Positions 554 to 14,349 of a stretch of DNA of 14,349 nt are shown here, piece by piece. The stretch comes from a virus (lineage: Duplodnaviria; Heunggongvirae; Uroviricota; Caudoviricetes). The stretch lies in IMG/VR virus record IMGVR_UViG_2585427756_000019; one strand, written 5' to 3'. The position numbers were made by a program, and so were the translations under genes. Each line of letters begins with the position of its first letter. Positions within the stretch are counted from its first letter, which is position 1. Under the pieces are notes generated by a model. The model worked only from the letters and a program-made list of their open reading frames with translations, was not told where the DNA came from and searched no databases.

Positions 554-1253
554 AACTGTACGTCGACTGATACAGCGGATTAACGAGATAATGATTTACG
601 CTGTAAACACTGGTCTGATTGATGCCAATCCAGCATCGGGGGTTGGGATGGCCTTTGAGAAGCCCAAAAAGCAAAACATGCCAACATTGCGGCCAGAAGA
701 ATTGCCGAAGCTGATGCGTTCTTTAGCTATGTCAAACCTATCTGTTTCGACTCGCTGTCTCATTGAATGGCAACTCCTGACACTTGTGCGTCCTTCTGAA
801 GCCTCTGGTGCTCGTTGGGCAGAGCTCGATCTTGATACAAAGCTCTGGACTATTCCGGCAGAGAGAATGAAAGCCAAACGAGAGCACATTGTTCCTTTAT
901 CACCCCAAGCTTTAGATATTTTGGAAGTGATGAAGCCCATCAGTGCTCATCGTGAACATATTTTTCCTAGCAGAAATGATCCTAAGCAATCAATGAATAG
1001 CCAAACTGCTAATGCAGCTTTAAAACGTATTGGTTTTGGAGGAAAGCTAGTTGCTCATGGCCTCCGATCTATTGCAAGTACAGCAATGAATGAAGCTGGG
1101 TTCAATGCGGATGTTATTGAAGCAGCTTTAGCTCACAGTGATAAAAATGAAGTTCGTAAAGCCTATAATCGTTCAACCTACCTGGTTCAAAGAAAAGATT
1201 TAATGAACTGGTGGGGATTATTTTGTATTAGTTCGAAGAGTGTGAATAAATGA
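554..1253 (+). pseudogene. int: P4-family tyrosine integrase, C-terminal catalytic part only; 5' part separated by the IS insertion
   Basis: The reading frame is open from the first base after the IS repeat (554) to the stop at 1251-1253. It contains the HxxR box (HGLRS) and the C-terminal VRKAYNRSTYLVQRKDLMNWW motif typical of P4-type integrases. The ATG at 591 in the ORF track is only the first in-frame Met. Confidence 0.8.
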
Positions 1254-2887
1254 ATACTTATAAGCAAACCATTAAACAAAAATCAAGATTAAACATATGG
1301 GAAACAGCTATCGCAAGGTTGACAACCCAAGCTGAGAGCTCAAGAATCTTAGAATCAAACTATTTAACAAATCTTATAGATTTTTGTTGGAAAGATACAC
1401 TAAATCAAGTTGCTATATATGATGAGAGCATTGTATTACGCAATGGTTATAATTGGGTGCAAAAAATAAGTGATAGTTATAAACCTAAAGCTGCAAGTGA
1501 ACTAAAGATTGCTTTCTTTTGCGGCCCTGAACCAGAAAATGACTTGGATATACTCTTATCATTAGATGTTAGAATAGAAAATATCTGGGCTTTTGAAATT
1601 GATAACAATTCATATAACACTGCCTTACAAAAAGCTAAAGAGTTCTATCCAAAATTAAAAATATTCCCTGGTTCTATTGGGGAGTTTTTTAAAACCACAC
1701 ATCATACCTTTGATATTATTTACCTTGATTTTACAAGTTCGTTATTGACTAAAAAGAGCCCTCCCCTTGGAGTAATAAACTCTGTATTTGACAATCAGGC
1801 CCTATCAGACTTAGGGGTGTTAATTGTAAACTCTTGCGAACCCGATGCTAACGAAGATAACGCAACATTTCTTGCAAGTTATTTCATGAATCACGAAATA
1901 ATTGAATCATCTGTAATTAACAAAACTAATGATGATGATTATGATGATAACTATGATTATTTTTCACTTTTTATTGAATCCCCCACATCACAAGGATACG
2001 ATGATATAAAGTCATTAGCAAAAGTTATAAAGACTAACATATCCGGAGCGTACTCTGCCTTTTCAACAAGTTATGTAATGCACTATGCTTCAATGATTAG
2101 TCCAACACTTCGTTTTCTACAAAATAACTCATTAAAAAGACAATTATTTAATGATAAAAAAGCTGAAGTAACTGCAACCTTTGCAGAAATTGGATCAACT
2201 GACTTTTTCAAAACATTAATATCAACAGATGGTGAAGCATCGTCCCCCTCCATTTTAGGAAACAGATTCCTAGATAATGAAAGCTACCCATTCTGGAATT
2301 TCATTGATTCATTAAATGGCTCAGGAACAAGTATTTCATCTTACTTTAAGAGCTTTTTCACCACCGCTAAAGAAGGTGTATCCATTTTAAATGCCGTGCA
2401 ATTTCGGGAATCATTTCACTCAATGCTTACAGGAGCTAGAAAGCTATTATCTCAGCGAATGCTCAATGCAATACCCCAAATAATAAAAGCAATTCCTGAT
2501 GCTAGAGGTGGTTTATTCTGTGACATTCCTTTACCCCACCTTTGGTTAGAGGTGGCACTTAATCAGTTAGGTGCACCATACCATGTAAACGTGAAAATGC
2601 ATAATCGATGGAAATATAAAGCAAAAACTCGCACAATGCATACGGACTTATTTGTTTTTGATAGATGCAGAGGTTTTTATGACTCAATGCCTATGATAGA
2701 TCAATACGAAACGATTCTTACTAACATCGAAGAACAAATTTTCGCTAGGTGTTGTATTGATATTATTGGTAAGCAATGTCGTTGGCCAACTCCAAAACTT
2801 TATTTTGGTTCGAACCTAATTGGAATAAACGAGTCTGATTGGTCTGAGTTCGCCGAACTTCGTGAAAGAGAAATTATAAAAGAATAA
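1250..2887 (+). CDS. Hypothetical 545-aa protein of unrecognised family; cargo gene in the int-cos slot of the satellite (candidate anti-phage defence protein)
   Basis: Long uninterrupted ORF whose ATG overlaps the integrase stop (ATGA at 1250-1253). Spot counts give about 22-32% GC, against clearly GC-rich backbone. The N-terminal third shows a beta-alpha alternation with FFCGPEPEND and FDIIYLDF motifs (Rossmann or methyltransferase-like, tentative). There is an acidic DDDYDDNYDYF tract mid-protein. No family assigned. Confidence 0.8.
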   Translation: MNTYKQTIKQKSRLNIWETAIARLTTQAESSRILESNYLTNLIDFCWKDTLNQVAIYDESIVLRNGYNWVQKISDSYKPKAASELKIAFFCGPEPENDLDILLSLDVRIENIWAFEIDNNSYNTALQKAKEFYPKLKIFPGSIGEFFKTTHHTFDIIYLDFTSSLLTKKSPPLGVINSVFDNQALSDLGVLIVNSCEPDANEDNATFLASYFMNHEIIESSVINKTNDDDYDDNYDYFSLFIESPTSQGYDDIKSLAKVIKTNISGAYSAFSTSYVMHYASMISPTLRFLQNNSLKRQLFNDKKAEVTATFAEIGSTDFFKTLISTDGEASSPSILGNRFLDNESYPFWNFIDSLNGSGTSISSYFKSFFTTAKEGVSILNAVQFRESFHSMLTGARKLLSQRMLNAIPQIIKAIPDARGGLFCDIPLPHLWLEVALNQLGAPYHVNVKMHNRWKYKAKTRTMHTDLFVFDRCRGFYDSMPMIDQYETILTNIEEQIFARCCIDIIGKQCRWPTPKLYFGSNLIGINESDWSEFAELREREIIKE

Positions 2888-2902: not shown

Positions 2903-2921
2903 GTGCTTTCCCCGCCTCGCC
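2903..2921. other. cos: P2/P4 cos cohesive-end sequence (19 nt)
   Basis: GTGCTTTCCCCGCCTCGCC is the exact reverse complement of the P2/P4 cohesive end GGCGAGGCGGGGAAAGCAC (recalled). It lies between the cargo gene and psu, as in P4. Confidence 0.8.
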
Positions 2922-2945
2922 CCCCCCCTTTGCGGGGGGGGTTTT
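2920..2945 (+). terminator. G/C homopolymer hairpin (C9-tttgc-G8) followed by TTTT; possible terminator for the cargo gene and/or part of the cos packaging region
   Basis: Run of 9 C at 2920-2928, loop TTTGC, run of 8 G at 2934-2941, then TTTT at 2942-2945. Confidence 0.4.
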
Positions 2946-3023
2946 AATGCAGTTGCACTGACACGCTCAGACCGCGCCGGGAATGGCGCGGTTTGCAGAA
3001 AATGAGGCAGGGAAACGCATGCA

Positions 3024-3056
3024 AAGCCATGCACCTTATCGATGCATGGCTTTTTT
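3024..3056. terminator. Stem-loop with flanking T/A tracts between the convergent cargo gene and psu; candidate bidirectional terminator
   Basis: AAGCCATGCA (3024-3033), 9-nt loop, TGCATGGCTT (3043-3052), followed by a T run to 3056 on the plus strand. On the minus strand it is followed by TTTG. Confidence 0.45.
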
Positions 3057-3086
3057 CAGTAAAAACGGGCGGATTTTCGGGGAATT

Positions 3087-3659
3087 TTACACTGACTGAC
3101 GTGATGCAAGTTGCGCACTTTTACGCGAAAAAATCATGTTCTGCGCAGGGGTGAATTTTTCACGGCTGTCATCCACCGAAGCCACGTCAGGCCTGAATCC
3201 GATGGTCGTTAAAATGTCGCTATCCTGTGCGGAATAATTAATTTTTTCACCCTTCGCAAGCCAGGACAGAAGGGCTTCACGCAGGGCATCTGTGGCACGC
3301 TGTATGGCACAGTTTCGGGCAATGGCCGTCAGCTCACTGTAGCCCATCAGCTCCGGTGCCAGTGCGGCCGCCAGTACTGTGCCGTGCTGCTGCATAAAAT
3401 CATTCAGCCGGTCGCGGATGCTGATGTGCTGAACGGCTTCATGCGAACGAATATAACGACCGGCGGCCTGATTCACCTGCCATTTTCTGACTTCGATAAT
3501 ATTGCGTAATTCGTCCAGGCGGCTGACGTTTCTGCCTTCTCCTGACAGAAGCCGCAGATATTCCTGTTCGGCCGCTGCCAGCTCATTTTTGCGTTGCAGC
3601 CATGCTGCTTTGTTATTCTGACAGGTGTCAAAGGCCTGCTGTAAGGCTGTGCTTTCCAT
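3087..3659 (-). CDS. psu: Polarity suppression protein Psu (capsid decoration / Rho antagonist), P4-like
   Basis: 190-aa ORF beginning MESTALQQAFDTCQNNKAAWLQRKNELAAAEQEYLRLL..., matching P4 Psu in length and recalled sequence. It is last in the sid-delta-psu operon. Confidence 0.9.
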   Translation of the reverse strand: MESTALQQAFDTCQNNKAAWLQRKNELAAAEQEYLRLLSGEGRNVSRLDELRNIIEVRKWQVNQAAGRYIRSHEAVQHISIRDRLNDFMQQHGTVLAAALAPELMGYSELTAIARNCAIQRATDALREALLSWLAKGEKINYSAQDSDILTTIGFRPDVASVDDSREKFTPAQNMIFSRKSAQLASRQSV

Positions 3660-3732
3660 CGTTATCTCTTTCTCATCATGCTGAAGAATAAAAATACGGT
3701 GTGCGGCGACGGCCGGGGTTAACCGGCAGCCC

Positions 3733-4233
3733 TCATTCCAGACGCAGCGAATATGATTGTGTTTTTAACCGTACTGGCGGCAGTTCCTGTTTTTCATGCA
3801 GGCGTTCTGCCAGTTCGTCCGGCGTGACCGGGCGGACAATGAAGCGGGTGATGGTCTGAAGCGTTTTAAACACCAGACCACAGTCCGGATCCGTGCACAC
3901 ATAAAAACGCTCGGTGACTTCCTGAGACAGACGCCGCGATGTTCTTGACAGCGCAAGGCCTTTACATCTCCGACAACAATATCCGGTAACAAGCATTCTT
4001 TTCGGGCGTTTCATACTGCCGGAGGCTGACGTCAGTGAATCGCGGTATCTCTGTTTGCCTGAAATGTATTCCATTCCTGAATCTTTACTGTCAGAGAAAA
4101 AGCTTTCACTCGCTTCAAATGTCGCAGAGCAATAAATATTCCGGCACTGTGCAATCATTATCTTGGTGCCATCGTCCATGAAATGTGCGCGACGGGTGTG
4201 AGCAACATGTCCACACGACGGGCAGTAAATCAT
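3733..4233 (-). CDS. delta: Delta late-gene transcriptional activator (tandem Ogr-like zinc-finger domains), P4-like
   Basis: 166 aa with two Cys-rich Ogr-type modules (MIYCPSCGHVAHTRRAH...QCRNIYCSATF and ...YCCRRCKG...YVCTDPDCGLVF). Its start overlaps the sid stop (ATGA at 4230-4233). Confidence 0.9.
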   Translation of the reverse strand: MIYCPSCGHVAHTRRAHFMDDGTKIMIAQCRNIYCSATFEASESFFSDSKDSGMEYISGKQRYRDSLTSASGSMKRPKRMLVTGYCCRRCKGLALSRTSRRLSQEVTERFYVCTDPDCGLVFKTLQTITRFIVRPVTPDELAERLHEKQELPPVRLKTQSYSLRLE

Positions 4234-4964
4234 GACAGCAGTCCTCTGGCCTTAAGCTCTGCTCCCTGCTGGTCTATTTTGTCCTGCCACACCTTGCGCT
4301 GTGCCGGTGTGCCTGCCACCTCATAATCCATGTGCGGGAGTGTTGCCGCTGACAGTCCGGTCAGCCGGAGAACCGGCTCGCCGGTGAGGCTGATTTGCAT
4401 CTGTTTAATTTTCTGTTCCAGCGATGATTTCACCTGCTGCATGACAGCTTTATCGGGTGCGACGTAGCCCTGATGGCCGGTGGTGTTGGCGAGCGGATTT
4501 TCCTGTACCAGGATACTCAGATGCATTGCCCGGACAAGCGCCTCACAGGTTTCATTCAGGGCGTGTTCCAGCTCATGCTCTGCATACAGACTCAGAAGGT
4601 GATGATGTGCCTTCCGGTAGGCGGTGGCCGTGCTGTCACACGCCCCTTTCAGGCGTTCACGTTCGAAATTCAGCACCACGGCCAGATTGTCATATTCCTG
4701 TACCAGCTCCCGGCGTGCCACGCGCTCAATGTGGCGCTGTTTCAGCTCGTCGCTCAGGACACCACCGGCTGCACGAAAGGCCGTGCGCCAGTCGTCAGCG
4801 TCGTTTCCGTTGGCCTGCGTCAGCGCATTTTTTTCCTGCTCTGCCCGTTCAATGGCCGTGATGGTCTCATCCATCAGGCGGGCGTTCTCAAGATGAGCGG
4901 CTCTGGCCTTTTCCAGTTGTGCCAGTGCGGGTTGCAGATATTCAGGGATGGTGTTGTCAGACAT
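4230..4964 (-). CDS. sid: Sid external scaffold / capsid size determination protein, P4-like
   Basis: Start assigned to the second Met (MSDNTIPEYLQPALAQLEKARAAH...), which gives 244 aa as in P4 Sid and is preceded by GAGGAG at 7-nt spacing. The upstream ATG at 4982 overlaps that ribosome-binding site. Confidence 0.9.
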   Translation of the reverse strand: MSDNTIPEYLQPALAQLEKARAAHLENARLMDETITAIERAEQEKNALTQANGNDADDWRTAFRAAGGVLSDELKQRHIERVARRELVQEYDNLAVVLNFERERLKGACDSTATAYRKAHHHLLSLYAEHELEHALNETCEALVRAMHLSILVQENPLANTTGHQGYVAPDKAVMQQVKSSLEQKIKQMQISLTGEPVLRLTGLSAATLPHMDYEVAGTPAQRKVWQDKIDQQGAELKARGLLS

Positions 4965-5036
4965 TTTCCGGCTCCTCGTCACTTCAGGTTAAGAAAATTG
5001 TGACGTACACCGGACAACAACACGACGCATTGCAGA

Positions 5037-5054
5037 TGTGCCAGCCCTGACACA
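5037..5054 (-). promoter_or_regulatory. Psid-type late promoter activator site: TGT-N12-ACA dyad (Ogr/Delta binding element)
   Basis: TGTgccagccctgacACA has perfect TGT-N12-ACA spacing. On the minus strand a CACAAT -10-like hexamer lies about 46 nt downstream of the dyad centre, putting the dyad near -55 of a predicted start about 27 nt upstream of the sid ATG. Confidence 0.55.
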
Positions 5055-5133
5055 GGAGACTCATCCTCACACCGGCAAGCCAGGAAAAGGTCGCAGGAAA
5101 AACCGGCTTACTGTTTGTTTTTTTATATTTTAC

Positions 5134-5237
5134 TGTTCACCTCTGTTCACCATAAGAAAAAAGATAAGTAATACAGTAAGTTAAAGGGTGAACAATCGCA
5201 GTAATGACTGTTCACCGTCTGTTCACCACTGTTCACC
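5134..5237. repeat. ori: ori-like iteron cluster: six copies of the octamer TGTTCACC (five direct, one inverted), candidate alpha-protein binding sites
   Basis: TGTTCACC at 5134-5141, 5144-5151, 5209-5216, 5220-5227 and 5230-5237; GGTGAACA (inverted) at 5187-5194. This matches the recalled P4 ori with six type I repeats, located between Psid and the rightward operon. Confidence 0.7.
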
Positions 5238-5516
5238 CGTTGATGGGCTTTTTGTGCTGTTTATTACTGTTTATTTTTATTAATTCGCCGGGAATGAATA
5301 AGAAAAAACGATTTGTATTTCACTATAAAAATTACGAATTGCTTTAAGTGGCTTTAAATGACTTTAAGTGGAGATGAACAAAAAACACACAAGCATTGTA
5401 AGGCTGCCGGAACAAATCCCCCCTGTTGCGTCTGCCAAAAATATTCACAAAATAAAGCGCTACCCGAAGCCGGACGGACTTATCCGGTGCTGTATGGACA
5501 TTAACGAGGTAGCCCG

Positions 5517-5783
5517 ATGCAAGCTGTTTTTTCTTCCCCGTCTCCCGCCCCTGTGACGCCACTGATGCCGCTGCCGGACATCACGCAGGAACGTTTTTTA
5601 CGTCTGCCGGAAGTAATGCACCTGTGCGGCCTGTCACGCTCGACCATCTATGAACTCATCCGTAAGGGGGAATTTCCGCCGCAGGTGAGTCTTGGCGGTA
5701 AAAATGTGGCCTGGCTGCACTCTGAAGTCACCGCATGGATGGCCGGGCGCATTGCCGGACGCAAACGGGGGTACGACGCATGA
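5517..5783 (+). CDS. vis: AlpA/Vis-family small DNA-binding protein (excisionase / transcriptional regulator), P4 orf88-like
   Basis: 88 aa with a GAGG ribosome-binding site 7 nt upstream. The core [47 protein letters not shown] is characteristic of the AlpA helix-turn-helix family. Confidence 0.8.
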
Positions 5784-5875
5784 TGATGCCCGCTCTGCAA
5801 AAACTCCCTTTTTCTGGCTTGCCTTTTTTCGGCATTTGCGGATATAGTTTTCCCGCTGCCGCAAAATCGGCAGCC

Positions 5876-6171
5876 GGGCGTGGAAACCCGAGCAATCTAA
5901 CGGCGACATATGACGCGCCATGCGTCTTTTTTTGTGTCGCAATCAACGCCACAGAGCGCCAGATTATGGTGTGGTGTGTGGTCAGTCGAGCAGATGGCAC
6001 TCCGTGCATCCTGCCCGCGTCCGCTCATTATGCCGCAGGGTCAATGGTAGCTCAGGCGGGGCAGCCTCCGGGCTGGCCGGTATCCGTTAGAGCCGGTATT
6101 TCCACCCCCGTCTGGGCTATCGCCATCGAGCGTGGAAACTCCGGCGATAGCGTAACCTGCTATCTAACGGA
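5876..6171 (+). ncRNA. cI: Putative P4-type RNA immunity leader (cI-like RNA region with seqA / seqB / seqC complementary elements); boundaries approximate
   Basis: Two similar segments containing CGTGGAAAC...ATCTAACGG (5876-5903 and 6129-6171) flank a segment CCGTTAGAGCCGGTATTTCCACCC (6085-6108) that is largely their reverse complement. This recalls the seqA-seqB-seqC arrangement of the P4 immunity region downstream of vis. Confidence 0.35.
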
Positions 6172-6181
6172 GGCTGCCATC

Positions 6182-6379
6182 ATGGCTACAACCCTTACCC
6201 CTTCACACCCTGAATTTGTCTTTGTGTTTGCGGCTGTCCGTCGCGCAGACCGTCATCCCCGTATCTGCATGCTTCGCACCGTCGCCGGTGATGAACGCAG
6301 TGCCCGCCGTTCCCTTGTCCGTGACTATGTGCTCTCCCTTGCTGCCCGTCTGCCGGTGGTGGAGGTGTCCCGTGCGTAA
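6182..6379 (+). CDS. Small hypothetical protein of the satellite left operon (position of P4 kil/eta); 65 aa
   Basis: ATG preceded by GGAGG at about 8 nt. The stop overlaps the start of the next ORF. The ORF-track 214-aa call (5735-6379) is an over-extension through GC-rich sequence. Confidence 0.4.
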
Positions 6380-6659
6380 TAAAAAAGCCCCTCAGACCGT
6401 CTCAGCACGTCATGACGCCCGTGAACACCTCAGCATTGAGGCTTACCATAAGCTCAACCGCGCCAGCGCCGTATCCCAGTTTGTTGGGGGTGATTTGATT
6501 CACCGTGAACTCTCCGGCCTGCATCAGCTCTACATTCCGCATATTTTCAGCTACCTGAATGAAGATATTGATTTTGTGCTGAATGAGCTGAAAGCCAAAG
6601 GCCTGTGCCGCGATTTTCTCGCCCAGCAGAAAGACCGGGGAGACAGGACGCATGTTTGA
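6372..6659 (+). CDS. Epsilon-like small protein (P4 helper-derepression protein position); 95 aa from a GTG start
   Basis: GTG start 4-5 nt after GGAGGTG. The 95-aa product ([28 protein letters not shown]...) agrees in length and position with my recollection of P4 epsilon. Its stop overlaps the next start. Confidence 0.5.
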
Positions 6660-7107
6660 TTTTCCCCAGCCCGGTGAGATTTACCGTTCTGCCGGTTTTC
6701 CCGATGTGGCCGTGGTCGGCATTCTGGAAGACGGTATTCCGTGGGAAATGCCGTACCGCTGCCCGGACATTGTCTGGAACCCGTACCGCCGTAAATTCAG
6801 TATCCTTGTGCGTATCCTCGCTGACGGGCGCACCACAGACATCCCGCTGGGGCGTTTTCTGCGGGAATTTACCTGTGACCGTCCTGACCTGTTTAAACGC
6901 AGCCCCGTAAACCGGCATGCGGTACTGAAAGAAATGGCCGGAGACCCGGAATTACAGAAATGGCGGGAGAAATATCTGGATATTTACCCGCAGGACACTG
7001 TTCCGGTCAGCCGGGCGGCACCGGTGGCGCGGGAATGGCGGGAAATTCCCCGCACGGAGCCTGACCCGGAAATCACCCCGGATAACAGTTACCGCAATTA
7101 TCTGTAA
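6652..7107 (+). CDS. Hypothetical protein, P4 orf151-like
   Basis: 151 aa, exactly the recalled P4 orf151 length. Start overlaps the upstream stop (operon coupling). Confidence 0.7.
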   Translation: MFDFPQPGEIYRSAGFPDVAVVGILEDGIPWEMPYRCPDIVWNPYRRKFSILVRILADGRTTDIPLGRFLREFTCDRPDLFKRSPVNRHAVLKEMAGDPELQKWREKYLDIYPQDTVPVSRAAPVAREWREIPRTEPDPEITPDNSYRNYL

Positions 7108-7242
7108 TTAAAAAACGACACCCGAAAAATTAAATGTGCGTATTCGCGCAGGGATACGCACGTCTTCAGGAGACGCAGATATGCCTTATCAGTTAATGCA
7201 ACCGGCACGGAATGCAGTCATCTGTCACAGGGAGGAAAACAA

Positions 7243-7563
7243 ATGAAAACACCCTTACCGCCCGTCTTACGCGCTGCCCTTTACCGTCGCGCTGTCGCCT
7301 GTGCCTGGCTGACCGTGTGCGAACGTCAGCACCGCTACCCGCATCTCACCCTTGAGTCACTGGAAGCGGCCATCGCCGCTGAGCTGGAAGGCTTTTATCT
7401 GCGCCAGCACGGTGAGGAAAAAGGGCGTCAGATAGCCTGTGCCCTGCTGGAAGATTTAATGGAATCCGGCCCCCTGAAGGCCGCGCCGTCGCTGTCCTTT
7501 CTCGGGCTGGTTGTGATGGATGAACTCTGTGCCCGTCACATAAAAGCGCCGGTACTGCACTGA
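7243..7563 (+). CDS. Hypothetical protein immediately upstream of alpha (P4 orf106-like)
   Basis: 106-aa ORF with GGGAGG ribosome-binding site about 8 nt upstream. Same strand and operon as alpha. Confidence 0.65.
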
Positions 7564-7577
7564 AGGAGAACAACACC

Positions 7578-9911
7578 ATGAAAATGAACGTAACCGCCAC
7601 CGTCAGCCATGCGCTCGGCCACTGGCCGCGTATTCTCCCGGCGCTGGGGATTCAGGTGCTGAAAAACCGTCATCAGCCCTGTCCGGTCTGTGGCGGGAGT
7701 GACCGCTTCCGTTTTGATGACAGGGAGGGGCGCGGCACCTGGTACTGCAATCAGTGTGGTGCCGGTGACGGCCTGAAACTGGTTGAAAAGGTGTTTGGTG
7801 TCTCCCCGTCCGACGCGGCCGCAAAGGTGGCTGCCGTGACCGGCAGCCTGCCCCCGGCTGACCCGGCAGTGACGGCTGCCGCCGGTGCTGAAACAGACGC
7901 TGCCCGGAAGAACGCCGCCGCACTGGCACAAACCCTGATGGCGAAAACCCGTCCCGGAACCGGTAACGCCTACCTGACCCGCAAGGGCTTTCCCGGCCGG
8001 GAATGCCGGATGCTGACCGGCACACACAGAGCCGGTGGCGTGAGCTGGCGTGCCGGTGACCTTGTGGTGCCACTGTATGACGACAGCGGCGAACTGGTTA
8101 ACCTTCAGTTAATCAGTGCTGACGGCCGTAAGCGCACCCTGAAAGGCGGACAGGTCAGGGGCACCTGTCACACCCTTGAAGGACAGAATCAGGCCGGAAA
8201 ACGTCTGTGGATAGCGGAGGGATACGCGACCGCACTTACCGTGCATCACCTGACCGGTGAAACGGTGATGGTGGCGCTTTCTTCCGTGAACCTCCTTTCT
8301 CTGGCCAGCCTTGCCCGGCAGAAGCATCCGGCCTGTCAGATTGTCCTTGCCGCAGACCGTGACCTCAGCGGTGACGGCCAGAAAAAAGCCGCCGCAGCCG
8401 CAGATGCGTGTGAAGGTGTTGTTGCCCTGCCGCCGGTCTTCGGTGACTGGAATGATGCCTTCACGCAGTACGGCGGGGAGGCCACCCGTAAGGCCATTTA
8501 CGATGCCATCCGGCCACCGGCTGAAAGCCCGTTCGACACCATGAGTGAAGCGGAGTTTTCCGCCATGAGTACCAGCGAAAAGGCCATGCGTATCTATGAG
8601 CATTACGGCGAGGCGCTCGCGGTCGATGCCAACGGCCAGCTTCTGTCCCGCTATGAAAATGGTGTCTGGAAGGTGCTGCCGCCACAGGACTTTGCCCGGA
8701 ATGTGGCCGGGCTGTTTCAGCGGCTGCGCGCGCCGTTCTCCTCCGGGAAGGTGGCCTCCGTGGTGGACACCCTGAAGCTGATTATTCCGCAGCAGGAAGC
8801 CCCCTCCCGCTGCCTGATTGGCTTTCGTAACGGCGTGCTCGACACGCAGAACGGCACGTTCCACCCGCACAGTCCGTCACACTGGATGCGTACCCTGTGC
8901 GATGTGGATTTCACCCCGCCGGTGGAAGGGGAAACGCTGGAAACCCACGCCCACGCGTTCTGGCGCTGGCTTGACCGTGCCGCCGGTGGCCGTGCGGAAA
9001 AACGCGACGTGATTCTGGCCGCACTGTTTATGGTGCTGGCAAACCGCTATGACTGGCAGCTCTTTCTGGAGGTGACCGGTCCCGGCGGCAGCGGCAAAAG
9101 TATCATGGCCGAAATAGCCACCCTGCTGGCCGGGGAGGATAACGCCACGTCGGCCACCATTGAGACGCTGGAATCCCCGCGTGAACGTGCCGCGTTAACT
9201 GGCTTCTCACTGATACGCCTGCCGGACCAGGAAAAATGGAGCGGCGACGGAGCCGGACTCAAGGCCATCACCGGCGGCGATGCAGTGTCCGTTGACCCGA
9301 AATACCGGGATGCGTACTCCACGCATATCCCGGCGGTGATTCTGGCCGTGAACAATAACCCGATGCGCTTCACCGACCGCAGCGGCGGCGTGTCACGCCG
9401 GCGGGTGATTATTCACTTCCCGGAACAGATAGCCCCGCAGGAGCGCGACCCGCAGCTTAAGGACAAAATCACCCGCGAGCTGGCGGTCATCGTGCGTCAC
9501 CTGATGCAGAAGTTCAGCGACCCGATGCTCGCCCGGTCACTGCTTCAGTCCCAGCAGAACTCAGACGAGGCACTGAACATCAAACGGGATGCCGACCCGA
9601 CGTTTGATTTTATCGGCTATCTGGAAACCCTGCCGCAGACCAGCGGCATGTATATGGGGAACGCCAGTATCATCCCGCGTAATTACCGTAAATACCTCTA
9701 TCACGCCTATCTGGCCTACATGGAGGCAAACGGCTACCGGAATGTACTCAGTCTGAAAATGTTCGGGCTGGGGCTGCCGGTGATGCTGAAGGAATACGGA
9801 CTGAATTACGAGAAGCGCCATACCAAACAGGGGATACAGACCAACCTGACACTGAAAGAGGAAAGCTACGGCGACTGGCTGCCAAAATGTGACGCCCCTG
9901 CAACAACCTGA
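7578..9911 (+). CDS. alpha: Alpha protein: bifunctional primase / SF3 helicase with C-terminal origin-binding domain, P4-like
   Basis: 777 aa, the P4 alpha length. N-terminal zinc-binding motif CPVCGGSDRFRFDDREGRGTWYCNQCG, Walker A GPGGSGKS at LEVTGPGGSGKSIMAEIA, AAGGAG ribosome-binding site upstream. Confidence 0.95.
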   Translation: MKMNVTATVSHALGHWPRILPALGIQVLKNRHQPCPVCGGSDRFRFDDREGRGTWYCNQCGAGDGLKLVEKVFGVSPSDAAAKVAAVTGSLPPADPAVTAAAGAETDAARKNAAALAQTLMAKTRPGTGNAYLTRKGFPGRECRMLTGTHRAGGVSWRAGDLVVPLYDDSGELVNLQLISADGRKRTLKGGQVRGTCHTLEGQNQAGKRLWIAEGYATALTVHHLTGETVMVALSSVNLLSLASLARQKHPACQIVLAADRDLSGDGQKKAAAAADACEGVVALPPVFGDWNDAFTQYGGEATRKAIYDAIRPPAESPFDTMSEAEFSAMSTSEKAMRIYEHYGEALAVDANGQLLSRYENGVWKVLPPQDFARNVAGLFQRLRAPFSSGKVASVVDTLKLIIPQQEAPSRCLIGFRNGVLDTQNGTFHPHSPSHWMRTLCDVDFTPPVEGETLETHAHAFWRWLDRAAGGRAEKRDVILAALFMVLANRYDWQLFLEVTGPGGSGKSIMAEIATLLAGEDNATSATIETLESPRERAALTGFSLIRLPDQEKWSGDGAGLKAITGGDAVSVDPKYRDAYSTHIPAVILAVNNNPMRFTDRSGGVSRRRVIIHFPEQIAPQERDPQLKDKITRELAVIVRHLMQKFSDPMLARSLLQSQQNSDEALNIKRDADPTFDFIGYLETLPQTSGMYMGNASIIPRNYRKYLYHAYLAYMEANGYRNVLSLKMFGLGLPVMLKEYGLNYEKRHTKQGIQTNLTLKEESYGDWLPKCDAPATT

Positions 9912-9918
9912 CCCACCT

Positions 9919-9944
9919 GACCGGCATCTGCCGGTCTTTTTTTT
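9919..9944 (+). terminator. Rho-independent terminator after alpha
   Basis: GACCGGC / GCCGGTC stem with a 4-nt loop, followed by eight T (9937-9944), starting 8 nt after the alpha stop. Confidence 0.65.
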
Positions 9945-9960
9945 ATCCCGACATCCCCCG

Positions 9961-10260
9961 AAGGTGAACAATCCAGTGTTCACCCTTCACCGTATATTCA
10001 CCCGTTATCATACTGAAATTAAAAGAGAAAAACGAAAGGTGAACAGTGTGAACAATCAAATCAAAAAAAACTTTTTTCTTCCTGAGTGATTTCAGTACGG
10101 GGGATTAATCACCGGTATGAGTCACACCGACAGAATGCCGGAGGTGAAGAATCGAATGTTCACCCTTCACCCATTATTCACCACCTATCACTCTGAAATA
10201 AAAGGAGAAAAAAGAAAGGTGAACAGTGTGAACAGTTCTTTCGAAAAAAAATTTTTTTCC
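9961..10260. repeat. crr: crr-like cis replication region: two roughly 120-bp direct repeats at 180-bp period, each with TGTTCACC / GGTGAACA iterons
   Basis: Units 9961-10082 and 10141-10260 align with high identity at an offset of exactly 180 bp. Each carries GGTGAACA, TGTTCACC, GGTGAACA and GTGTGAACA motifs. This matches the recalled P4 crr (two 120-bp repeats, 60-bp spacer) about 4.5-4.8 kb from ori. Confidence 0.7.
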
Positions 10261-10513
10261 TGTACGATATAGCATCAATCCAAGTAAAAATGCGCTTTCA
10301 TTTCACATTAACTTACAGCCATTGGTATACGATTAGGTATACGCACAAAAACTGAATTAAACAAAATCATTAAAAATCAAAGCAATACAATATTTATTCA
10401 AACTCCGCCAGCCATGATTGGACGGTGTAAGGACAACACCAACAAAAACAGGAAGTTAGAAGTCTCAGCAAAACACCGACCAGACGGTGAGGAGACATAA
10501 AAGGATACGCAAA

Positions 10514-10570: not shown

Positions 10571-13500
10571 TCAGAACGACCAGTTCACACCAGCTACCGC
10601 GTTCCACGGGGATTCCACACCGGCACTATGGCTATACCCCACCCCAAGATGCCCGCTTAACGTACTGCTGAATGAGGCTTTAATACCTGCCTGGTATATT
10701 CCACGTCTGCCCGACAAATAATTGACGAAATTACCGTCACTATTCACTTTCACCCGGTTATCATCGACAAATTCTTTGCGCACAGCCGCCTTCAGCCACG
10801 GCTCAACTTCCATACCGTTCCCCAGACGCATGTTGTAACTCAGCGTTGCGCCCAGTTCACGATATATACTGCGGGTATCGACTGATTTCGATTTCATGCC
10901 ATTGGATAAATGATATTCGGGGTTATCAGCGGTGAACCCCGTTAACGATGCATACGGCGTCAGGTTCCAGTTACCATCGGTAAATCGCATCCCGGTTTCA
11001 ATGTGACCGCCCAGCCCGTTGCTGTGGTAACTGCCATTGGCGGCTCCACCGCTGCTCATTTTACCTGCTACGTTACTTTTAAAACGGTTCAGCTTCACGA
11101 CACCGTCCAGATAGAAACCACTTTCATGTTCCCAACTGGCATAGCCGCCCAGAGAATAACTGCCCACACTGCCATGTCCTCCGCGATCAAAACCGATATG
11201 TGAATGGGAATAGCCCATAAAAGCGCCTAGCGTGGTAATTCCTTCAGGAATATCATTACGGCTGTCGATCCCCACTGTCATTCCGGTCAGCGTCTGCTCA
11301 AACCCGGCACCCGCATCGGTGGTGACATTATTACGGGTGTTATACGTCGCCCCCCAGACATTATTGTTGTGTGGACTCGCTTTCATTATGTTCAACCGCT
11401 CGCGAATACTGTTTAGCTCAGCATCAAATACCAACGGTAATGTTGCTGCCATATTGAGTACGGCTGCCGTAGAAGGCGTAATGCGTTTCTCCGGAACGGG
11501 TGTCGGCGTTGGATCGGGAGTAGGGTCTGGTTTTGGATTTGGGTCTGGCTTTGGATCGGGTTTTGGGTCTGGCTTTGGATTTGGGATGGGGTCCGGGTTG
11601 GGTTTGACATCATTGGTCAGGTTCCAGTTGCTGTTGCCGTCACTTTTCAGGACATACTCATAGGTCCCAAGATCAACGAAACCGCCGGTATTGCCCAGCG
11701 TAAACGAAGCATCCCCTCCCCCTGTTTTCACCAGCGTCATCGCGTCGTCAGACTGTGGGCTGACGCCGGTATCCTGAACAAAGATTTTAAAATTACCAGT
11801 GGCGTTGTTGTTGACGACCAGTTGATCGCCCCGGGAGCCTGCAACGTTGGTATGCAGGTAGAAATTACCGCTACCGGAAAGTTCATTGGTTGTCAGCGTA
11901 TTGTAGATACCGTTAGTTGTGGCAGGCGCTGCTGTTTGTGCTGACAAATAAACATCACCGTCGTTGAGTAGCAAACTGTTTACTCTATATTCGCAGTTGC
12001 TGGTACCTGCACAGGAATTATTGCTGTTAAGCCAGACACTGCCCCGGCTGGCAGCCGTCAGGTCGGCAAGCGTGGTATCGACGCCATTTCCCAGAGTCAA
12101 TGTCGCGCTATCGGTAATCCGGACCGCCCCTTCGAGTTTAACTGGCGTAACATTATCCCGTGGCGTCATTAACGACAGGCTTCCTGTCGCGCCACTGACC
12201 GATGCATCCGCCAGCGTACCTGCGTAGACGATTGCCGTACCGCCAGCGACCTGGAGATCTTCTGCCCGGGCCAGAGCCTGAAACTCATCTTTTGACCGCC
12301 CAAGGGTATATTGCCCGCCAGAGTTAACCTTTGTGGCGGAGTCCTGACCCAGGTTTTGCATTGCCCCACCCTTGCCAACCGTGGAGTCGCGAGCTTCGGT
12401 ACCTGCTAATACCAATAAATTACCGCCATTTTCCAGCAACATATTGGTCGCTAAATTGCCGGAAATGGAAAAAGTACCGTACTGGTGAGTACCGCTGATT
12501 TCAATACCGTTAGCCGTGCTCGTCTGGAGAGCGGCACCGCTGTTCTGGACGATATCTGTCGCTTTGCCATTATCGTTGACTGTCAGCGTACCGCCTTCAT
12601 TGATCTTTGTTTTTATTGCCTCTCCGTTAGCTGAAACTGTTTGTATTCCGCCGTCGTTAATTGTTGTCTCATTCGCCACACCCTCGACAATTTGTTCACC
12701 GCCGGTGAGCGTCGTGCCTGTCGCAGTGGCTTTTGTTTTGACGATCTCCCGTCCGCCCATATTGACCTGTGTTTTGTCAGAAGAGGTGTCTGACTCCACG
12801 GTTAACACGCCGCCATTTGCCAGCAGGATATTGTTCGCCGCACCCTGCTCGATGCTGAACGCGACGCCATCCGCGCGTGTTCCTGTGACCCGCGTCGCCC
12901 TGGTGGTTGCAACCAAAGCGCCCTGGCTACTCTGCTGTATCCCCGTTGCGCTGCCTTTCTCCCGCACATCGAGTGTGCCGCCGTCATTAAGCACCGAGTT
13001 TTCAGCCAGACCGCCCTCATTAACTACCTGTGAACCCCCATTAATAATGGAACCTTCCGCTGTCCCGTTTGCCATAATTTGTTGTAGGCCAGAGACGATA
13101 TCGGTATTGATTGCCTTACCATAATTCTGAACGGTTTGCGTGCCACCATTGATGTGTGTTTTCTCTGTTGACCCACCATCAACAATTTGTTCACCACTTT
13201 CGATATTTGCTTCAGTGGCTAAACCATATACCGTTTGCTTGCCACCTTTGATATTTGCTTTATCAGAAGTGGCACTGGCATATATTGTTTGGGTGCCAGC
13301 ACTATTGAGTACAGTGCCAACATCTTTTCCATAAACATCCATTTTGCCGTTGGCATTAATAATCGTGTCAACTGCGCGGGAACCAGTGACGACTGTTAAT
13401 GAGCCAGCGTTTTCCAGCACTACATTTTTAGCTTCTGAATTCCTGATGTAGAAAGCATCACCATAACTGTTGGTTCCTTCGATAAGTGTTCCGGAGGTCG

Positions 13501-13718
13501 TGGAAGCAATTAATGCGCCGCCGGATTGTTGCTCAACATGCTTAGCCTCACCACCGTCCTGAACCTCCAGAACGCCGCCATTATTAAGTCTGGTGCTATC
13601 TGTTTTAGCCTCCTTCTGGACAATCAGCTTACCGCCAGTATCAATGGTAGTATTTTTCGCCGAGGTTTTAGCCACTACCGTCAGTTCGCCGGTATTTTCC
13701 AGCACAACATAATTAGCC
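10571..13718 (-). pseudogene. AIDA-I/Ag43-type autotransporter adhesin (beta-helical passenger, Pro-rich linker, C-terminal beta-barrel); 5' end removed by the IS10 insertion
   Basis: C-terminus ...NAVAGVNWSF is an autotransporter barrel signature. Linker PNPDPIPNPKPDPKPDPKPDPNPKPDPTPDPTPTPVP. The passenger has Gly-rich beta-helix repeats. The apparent N-terminus MCIHLNLMIFTKIIRGF is encoded by the IS10 end and there is no signal peptide, so the ORF is a fusion artefact. Confidence 0.85.
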
Positions 13719-14349
13719 CTGATGAATCCCCTAATGATTTTGGTAAAAATCATTAAGTTAAGGTGGATACACATCTTGTCATATGATCAAATGGTTTCGC
13801 GAAAAATCAATAATCAGACAACAAGATGTGCGAACTCGATATTTTACACGACTCTCTTTACCAATTCTGCCCCGAATTACACTTAAAACGACTCAACAGC
13901 TTAACGTTGGCTTGCCACGCCTTACTTGACTGTAAAACTCTCACTCTTACCGAACTTGGCCGTAACCTGCCAACCAAAGCGAGAACAAAACATAACATCA
14001 AACGAATCGACCGATTGTTAGGTAATCGTCACCTCCACAAAGAGCGACTCGCTGTATACCGTTGGCATGCTAGCTTTATCTGTTCGGGCAATACGATGCC
14101 CATTGTACTTGTTGACTGGTCTGATATTCGTGAGCAAAAACGACTTATGGTATTGCGAGCTTCAGTCGCACTACACGGTCGTTCTGTTACTCTTTATGAG
14201 AAAGCGTTCCCGCTTTCAGAGCAATGTTCAAAGAAAGCTCATGACCAATTTCTAGCCGACCTTGCGAGCATTCTACCGAGTAACACCACACCGCTCATTG
14301 TCAGTGATGCTGGCTTTAAAGTGCCATGGTATAAATCCGTTGAGAAGCT
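13719..14349 (+). mobile_element. IS10 (IS4 family; Tn10-type), outside end plus 5' half of the transposase, continues past window end
   Basis: From 13719 the sequence reads CTGATGAATCCCCTAATGATTTTGGTAAAAATCATTAAG..., the IS10 terminal sequence as I recall it. Confidence 0.9.
13826..14349 (+). CDS. IS10 transposase, N-terminal part (open to window end)
   Basis: ATG at 13826 translates to MCELDILHDSLYQFCPELHLKRLNSLTLACHALLDCKTLTLTELGRNLPTKARTK..., the IS10 transposase N-terminus. Not listed in the ORF track because there is no stop in the window. Confidence 0.9.
   Translation, partial: MCELDILHDSLYQFCPELHLKRLNSLTLACHALLDCKTLTLTELGRNLPTKARTKHNIKRIDRLLGNRHLHKERLAVYRWHASFICSGNTMPIVLVDWSDIREQKRLMVLRASVALHGRSVTLYEKAFPLSEQCSKKAHDQFLADLASILPSNTTPLIVSDAGFKVPWYKSVEK

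Follow-up and report, generated by a model that had tools for sequence, protein, structure and literature searches.

Replication of the satellite P4 requires two regions in cis, ori and crr, which are bridged by the alpha protein through looping. It is independent of DnaA, DnaB, and DnaG and is restrained by Cnr, which acts on alpha. In P4 alpha, a DnaG-type primase domain and an SF3 helicase are joined to a winged-helix domain at the C terminus (PMC2777425); alpha uses the winged-helix domain to bind the repeats of the origin, which it then unwinds and primes (PMC4234260). P2 cox-boxes, spaced 10 to 11 bp apart, lie upstream of the P4 promoter PLL, and the Cox protein of P2 binds there and derepresses P4 (PMC3936717). 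A genome survey of P4-like elements never found them as plasmids (Moura de Sousa and Rocha 2021, PMC8628076).

Here, we analyzed a cluster of six octamers in a 14,349-nucleotide stretch of DNA, which we refer to in its entirety as the window. The original prediction, made from the sequence alone, had proposed that this cluster is an origin of the P4 type. We found that it is the already-described P4 origin, an ordinary example and not a new one. Judging from its sequence, we estimate a probability of about 93% that the cluster serves as the primary replication origin (ori, or oriI) of a P4-type satellite, carried here as a P4-like prophage at ssrA.

RESULTS

Six octamers lie between sid and vis

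Exact matching placed five direct copies of the octamer TGTTCACC on the plus strand (5134-5141, 5144-5151, 5209-5216, 5220-5227, and 5230-5237) and one inverted copy on the minus strand (5187-5194), in agreement with the count, orientation, and coordinates originally given. Together, these six type I iterons make up the ori core (5134-5237, plus strand). Neighboring direct octamers are 10 to 11 bp apart, and an AT-rich spacer of 35 bp occupies 5152-5186. The stretch had also been described as AT flanked, and this was borne out on both sides (GC content of 0.22 to 0.32): GC content is 0.28 to 0.32 at 5100-5199 and 0.22 to 0.28 at 5250-5374, versus 0.54 to 0.58 farther out. The tract that adjoins the iterons at 5250-5335 (GC content of 0.22 to 0.28) is a candidate unwinding region.

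The octamers do lie between Psid and vis, as had been proposed. Their left neighbor is sid (4230-4964, minus strand; 244 amino acids [aa]), which starts at 4964, and their right neighbor is vis/ORF88, of the AlpA family (5517-5783, plus strand). A TGT-N12-ACA dyad of the Delta/Ogr type is found upstream of sid, on the Psid side (5037-5054), and a second TGT-N12-ACA dyad is found upstream of vis, on the PLL side (5397-5414); such dyads are not overrepresented in the window (7 occurrences versus 3.6 expected) and were used as landmarks only. A sigma-70 promoter scan of 4900-5600 found no promoter; since Psid and PLL both depend on activators, this negative result carries no information. One terminator-like hairpin, at 5187-5216, was rejected, as it consists of the inverted octamer pairing with the next direct one; such predictions occurred at chance frequency (1 found versus 0.9 expected).

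The exact octamer occurs 13 times in the whole window, versus 0.59 times expected by chance, and none of 200 dinucleotide-preserving shuffles gave 13 copies, the highest count in a shuffle being 3. When up to one mismatch was allowed, 33 copies were found, versus 12.2 expected. At the chance rate, only ~0.004 copies of TGTTCACC are expected per 104 bp, and the presence of six is therefore far beyond chance. Two further exact copies (12693-12700 and 13188-13195, plus strand) lie outside the P4-derived DNA, in the repetitive passenger domain of ypjA, and are probably coincidences of a coding repeat rather than iterons.

The cluster is identical to the P4 origin in its repeats and their spacing

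An alignment with the P4 ori had been set beforehand as a test of the assignment, and the region passed it: positions 4900-5600 of the window are 97.4% identical over 701 bp to positions 8947-9647 of the P4 sequence X51522. This segment is part of a 7.3-kb tract (window positions 2924-10257) that is 98.2% identical to P4 (X51522/NC_001609, 11622-4291, reverse strand). The feature annotated in P4 as "origin of DNA replication" (X51522 9086-9809) has its counterpart at 4738-5461, with 97.4% identity. The six "ori type 1 repeat" features of X51522 coincide one for one with the octamers of the window and are identical to them, and in a pairwise alignment all six octamers and every distance between them are those of P4. 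The proposal that octamer number and placement agree with the P4 origin was thus upheld with regard to sequence, spacing, and the position between sid and ORF88/vis. Around ori, 313 of 321 aligned columns are identical to P4, and the eight substitutions all fall outside the repeats. Only two of them are within 5134-5237, both in the AT spacer (5152 T>A and 5156 T>G), and this version of the spacer is common to other natural Escherichia coli elements.

The replication partners of ori are intact

The window encodes an intact alpha protein of 777 aa (7578-9911, plus strand), in which a primase and an SF3 helicase precede a winged-helix origin-binding domain at the C terminus; the protein matches P4-family primase models. 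It is identical to P4 alpha at 766 of 776 residues, and its residues 671 to 770 are identical (100/100) to the crystallized origin-binding domain of P4 (PDB code 1KA8). The copy-number regulator that acts on alpha, cnr (ORF106, DUF5375; 7243-7563, plus strand), encodes 106 aa that are 100% identical to P4 ORF106. Downstream of alpha, a putative rho-independent terminator, t-alpha (9919-9944, plus strand), was transferred from the P4 annotation by alignment. It is followed by the cis replication region, crr (9958-10257), composed of two 120-bp direct repeats (9958-10077 and 10138-10257) that are 60 bp apart. Each repeat contains five type I copies. The reported recurrence of the octamer downstream of alpha was therefore accurate, with 5 exact and 5 one-mismatch copies at 9963-10234; these occupy the positions annotated in P4, and the degenerate octamers are the same copies that are degenerate in P4.

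The remaining P4 genes vis, eps, orf151, sid, delta, and psu are also intact and are 97.6 to 99.5% identical to their P4 counterparts. A cohesive-end sequence, cos (2903-2921, minus strand), is identical to that of P4 over 19 nucleotides (nt), being the reverse complement of the P4 left end. The counterpart of the P4 CI RNA and its targets lies in the immunity region at 5842-6127 (plus strand), where we obtained Rfam matches to c4-a1b1 (5842-5894), isrK (5855-5932), and C4 antisense RNA (6040-6127). Because this region is intact, the resting prophage should not express alpha.

The prophage is integrated at ssrA and its integrase is disrupted

In the best-matching complete genomes, the order of the element is ssrA, int (401 aa), an open reading frame (ORF) for a hypothetical protein of 545 aa, cos, psu, delta, sid, and ori, followed by vis, the immunity region, eps, orf151, cnr, alpha, crr, attR, and ypjA. 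The original prediction had described the integrase as disrupted, and this is the case in the window: the end of an IS629 copy (1-554) displaces roughly the first 169 codons of int. What follows is the C-terminal remnant of an ssrA-type integrase (555-1253, plus strand), from codon ~170 onward, which was called as an ORF of 220 aa and matches only positions 182 to 394 of the 413 in the integrase profile. The IS629 end carries an ALIL frameshift pseudoknot at 102-218. The same element in another genome (L003) has an uninterrupted int of 401 aa (WP_001702960.1), and every protein compared between the two is identical except for one (a 214-aa ORF, 99.5%). None of the complete E. coli genomes searched contains the IS629/int junction. 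Because L003 has an intact int and the junction is absent from the searched genomes, the IS629 insertion looks recent.

At the other end of the prophage, the P4-homologous sequence runs exactly to the end of crr (10257), after which an ssrA-type attP takes the place of that of the P4 type. The right prophage end (10320-10414, plus strand) consists of the arm-type repeat ATTGGTATACGATTAGGTATACG (10320-10342) and a degenerate copy of the 3' end of ssrA (~10398-10414), which represents attR. The 23-nt arm-type repeat, a tandem repeat of GGTATACG, is present at both prophage ends, the copy in L003 lying at 5433-5455 between ssrA and int. Past attR, the ypjA/ehaD autotransporter adhesin gene (10571-13718, minus strand) is truncated by IS10 (13719-14349, with RNA-OUT at 13764-13833), which leaves ~1,049 of its 1,526 codons.

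The 545-aa ORF between int and cos (1250-2887, plus strand) is 100% identical in L003 and had no match in Pfam, PADLOC, NCBIfam, or PHROGs. The slot that it fills is occupied by Drt4 or a DEAD-box helicase in related elements and by gop, beta, and cII in P4; we consider the ORF a candidate orphan defense gene.

As in P4-like satellites, psu, delta, sid, alpA/vis, epsilon, and alpha are colocalized in P4 order, and cos is present. An intact integrase next to psu is a further criterion for such a satellite (PMC8628076), and here the integrase is not intact. Since int is interrupted and only its C-terminal remnant is left, we regard the element as a defective, nonexcisable P4-like member and not as a different kind of element. 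The original prediction had gone further, to an autonomous alpha-dependent replicon. The replicon itself is preserved, with ori, crr, alpha, and cnr all intact as sequence. Its autonomy is doubtful: autonomous replication needs excision, and with int disrupted, excision should not occur without a source of Int in trans.

The octamers are conserved across genera

The ori region is present in 1,007 of 5,426 complete E. coli genomes, and all 1,206 places at which it occurs are chromosomal. Among these E. coli matches, none of the RefSeq records examined carries an annotation of ori or crr. We also searched one genome per species for the iteron arrangement and obtained six loci in other species, from Klebsiella, Citrobacter, Raoultella, Rosenbergiella, Oceanisphaera, and one contig of a metagenome-assembled genome (MAG). 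An alpha homolog was found at five of these six loci, with a C-terminal domain 47 to 88% identical; the MAG contig (L010) had no alpha match. In a footprint of six divergent sequences with a mean identity of 63%, 43 of the 48 columns within the octamers were invariant, and mean conservation was 0.97 in the octamers, 0.69 in the spacers, and 0.56 in the flanks. Octamers that are kept alongside alpha homologs with a conserved C-terminal domain are the signature of a protein-binding site that coevolves with its binding domain.

Several of the loci differ in their layout or state. The MAG contig (URND01000141.1) belongs to UMGS1151, labeled "uncultured Clostridiales," and contains a P4 ori that differs little from the E. 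coli version; it is most likely a misbinned or contaminating enterobacterial contig. In Klebsiella (L006:6928-7156), Citrobacter (L007:3486-3713), and Oceanisphaera (L008:6894-7102), eight octamers are clustered ~50 bp downstream of an alpha-like gene, and these alpha-like genes align with P4 alpha only from residue ~327 or ~485. Going by its sequence, this cluster looks like a single combined ori/crr-like cluster, that is, another replicon layout with the same binding-site specificity. In the selC-site element of E. coli 2013C-4830 (L015), whose ori is at ~7529 (minus strand), a duplication of 11 bp (CTGTTCACCGT) has added a seventh iteron, and the first copy is degenerate; this element also has a stop codon within alpha and a frameshift in psu. 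In O157:H7 Z1814, the inverted octamer copy carries a point mutation.

The type 2 repeats may form a cassette matched to the helper

Three repeats phased at 10 bp, the "ori type 2 repeat" features of P4, lie at 5339-5371 on the minus strand and read TTAAAGTCA, TTAAAGCCA, and TTAAAGCAA. On that strand, they fit the P2 cox-box consensus TTAAA(G/C)NC(A/C), and they are probably a site for the Cox protein of the helper upstream of PLL rather than a site for alpha. In other P4-like satellites (L014, L015, L004, and L009), E. coli elements among them, a patch of ~90 bp (~5297-5385) is swapped for other repeat blocks, and the iterons, flanks, and Vis are unchanged where this occurs. A clear phasing of three 10-bp repeats is seen in the O157-type block and in that of Raoultella. 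Only 439 of the 1,007 ori-bearing E. coli genomes keep the P4-type version of the patch.

We compared these cassettes with the Cox-target regions of helper phages. K-mer sharing was too blunt for this purpose and missed even the P4/P2 positive control; thus, we used local alignment, scored in 40 comparisons with six helpers against 300 shuffles per cassette that preserved mononucleotide content only. In the positive control, the P4-type cassette matched the P2 Pe/Pc switch with a z score of 8.0 (0/300 shuffles reached the score). The O157-type cassette matched the attP region of WPhi (z = 7.6; 0/300) and matched neither the P2 switch (z = -1.3; 298/300) nor the P2 attP (z = -1.1; 292/300), and the L004-type cassette matched the switch of ESSI2_ev239 (z = 4.8; 0/300). 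No covariation with the cassette allele is seen for alpha, cnr, vis, delta, eps, or orf151, each of which is at least 97% identical across alleles; the immunity region alone diverges in parallel with the allele, in a small sample.

The Cox protein of WPhi is reported not to activate P4 (PMC5009727), and the cassette may therefore be a sensor specific to a helper lineage. Based on these alignments, we tentatively suggest, at somewhat less than even odds, that the type 2 block is a swappable cox-box cassette outside the origin proper, whose alleles are matched to lineages of P2-like helpers, with a P2-type allele in the window and in P4 and WPhi- or ESSI2-like alleles in most other E. coli satellites. 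We found no description of helper-matched cox-box cassettes in the literature searched, the coverage of which was incomplete. If the suggestion is correct, the ori/PLL control region encodes which helper wakes the satellite and triggers origin firing, and such cassettes could help explain the specificity between satellites and helpers.

DISCUSSION

Alternative explanations for the cluster

That the octamers are a chance or low-complexity repeat devoid of function is scarcely credible, given 13 copies in the window versus 0.59 expected, a number that 0 of 200 shuffles reached, and given octamers that are conserved across genera while the spacers drift. A more specific proposal is that their main role is as operators for the control of the divergent late promoters Psid and PLL by alpha together with Cnr, and that initiation does not take place there. 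Their location invites this idea, as they sit in a 550-bp divergent intergenic region between the dyads at 5037-5054 and 5397-5414. However, the dyad pattern shows no enrichment across the window (7 versus 3.6 expected), and the P4 annotation assigns the replication origin to this same region. Moreover, the octamers recur in crr, downstream of the alpha terminator and away from the late promoters, and in Klebsiella, Citrobacter, and Oceanisphaera they cluster ~50 bp past the stop of the alpha-like gene and not between late promoters. We therefore consider a mainly regulatory role very improbable.

A stronger challenge is that the cluster is the P4 ori by descent and nothing more, a dead relic in a decaying element locked by IS629, in which the iterons no longer support replication. 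The split int, the second insertion sequence (IS10) 3.4 kb to the right in ypjA, the existence of a decaying relative in 2013C-4830 (internal stop in alpha and frameshifted psu), and the fact that P4-like elements have never been seen as plasmids (PMC8628076) would all fit such a history. Nevertheless, no replication component is damaged, all of them are at least 98% identical to those of functional P4, and the insertion is apparently recent, since int is uninterrupted in L003 and the junction is in no complete E. coli genome searched. Furthermore, ori firing needs alpha, ori, and crr and not Int. On balance, a dead relic appears unlikely, and we favor an origin that is still competent for replication.

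How the origin would work

In an origin of this type, the C-terminal winged-helix domain of alpha would bind the TGTTCACC iterons at ori and those in crr, 4.7 kb away. The phasing of 10 to 11 bp would set neighboring alpha sites, or protomers, on one face of the helix. The SF3 helicase of alpha would then open the AT-rich DNA beside the iterons, and its primase domain would prime synthesis. Replication would depend on ori and crr as cis-acting sites and on alpha as a trans-acting protein, and Cnr would keep alpha in check. The Cox protein of a P2-type helper could activate PLL via the adjacent cox-boxes and, possibly, lead to origin firing. For the element studied here, we infer alpha binding, firing, and continued replicon competence by analogy with P4.

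Without excision, firing would take place in situ in the chromosome and not on a free plasmid. By the same analogy, in situ firing upon helper infection is the most likely behavior of the locked element, and helper infection might cause an integrase-dead element that retains intact ori, crr, alpha, and cos sequences to be amplified in situ. The intact set of ori, crr, and alpha also marks this IS-damaged satellite as a recent cripple rather than an old relic. As for the origin itself, we have reidentified the textbook P4 origin, which is present in ~1,000 E. coli genomes, and the practical value of doing so lies in annotation.

Comparison with known replicons

The closest relative of this locus is the P4 ori, which it resembles in the number, orientation, sequence, and spacing of the iterons, in their position between sid and ORF88/vis, in the layout of crr, and in the presence of a 777-aa alpha, cnr, and three type 2 repeats. 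The differences from P4 lie in the rest of the element: its alpha has ten substitutions, none of them in the crystallized binding domain; its ssrA-targeting integrase shares only 39.5% identity with P4 Int; its int is interrupted by IS629; and it carries the 545-aa orphan ORF where P4 has gop, beta, and cII. With the P4-like satellites of Enterobacterales, a family that the survey defines by its proteins (PMC8628076), the element shares a chromosomal location and the order int, cargo, psu, delta, sid, vis (alpA), eps, and alpha. More distantly, it resembles pSC101, P1 oriR, and the lambda ori, in which helically phased direct repeats also lie beside an AT-rich tract and are bound through a winged helix by an initiator that the replicon encodes. 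The P4-type replicon differs from these three systems in that its initiator itself carries primase and SF3 helicase activities (PMC2777425) and in that it needs a second iteron cluster, crr, in cis, 4.7 kb away.
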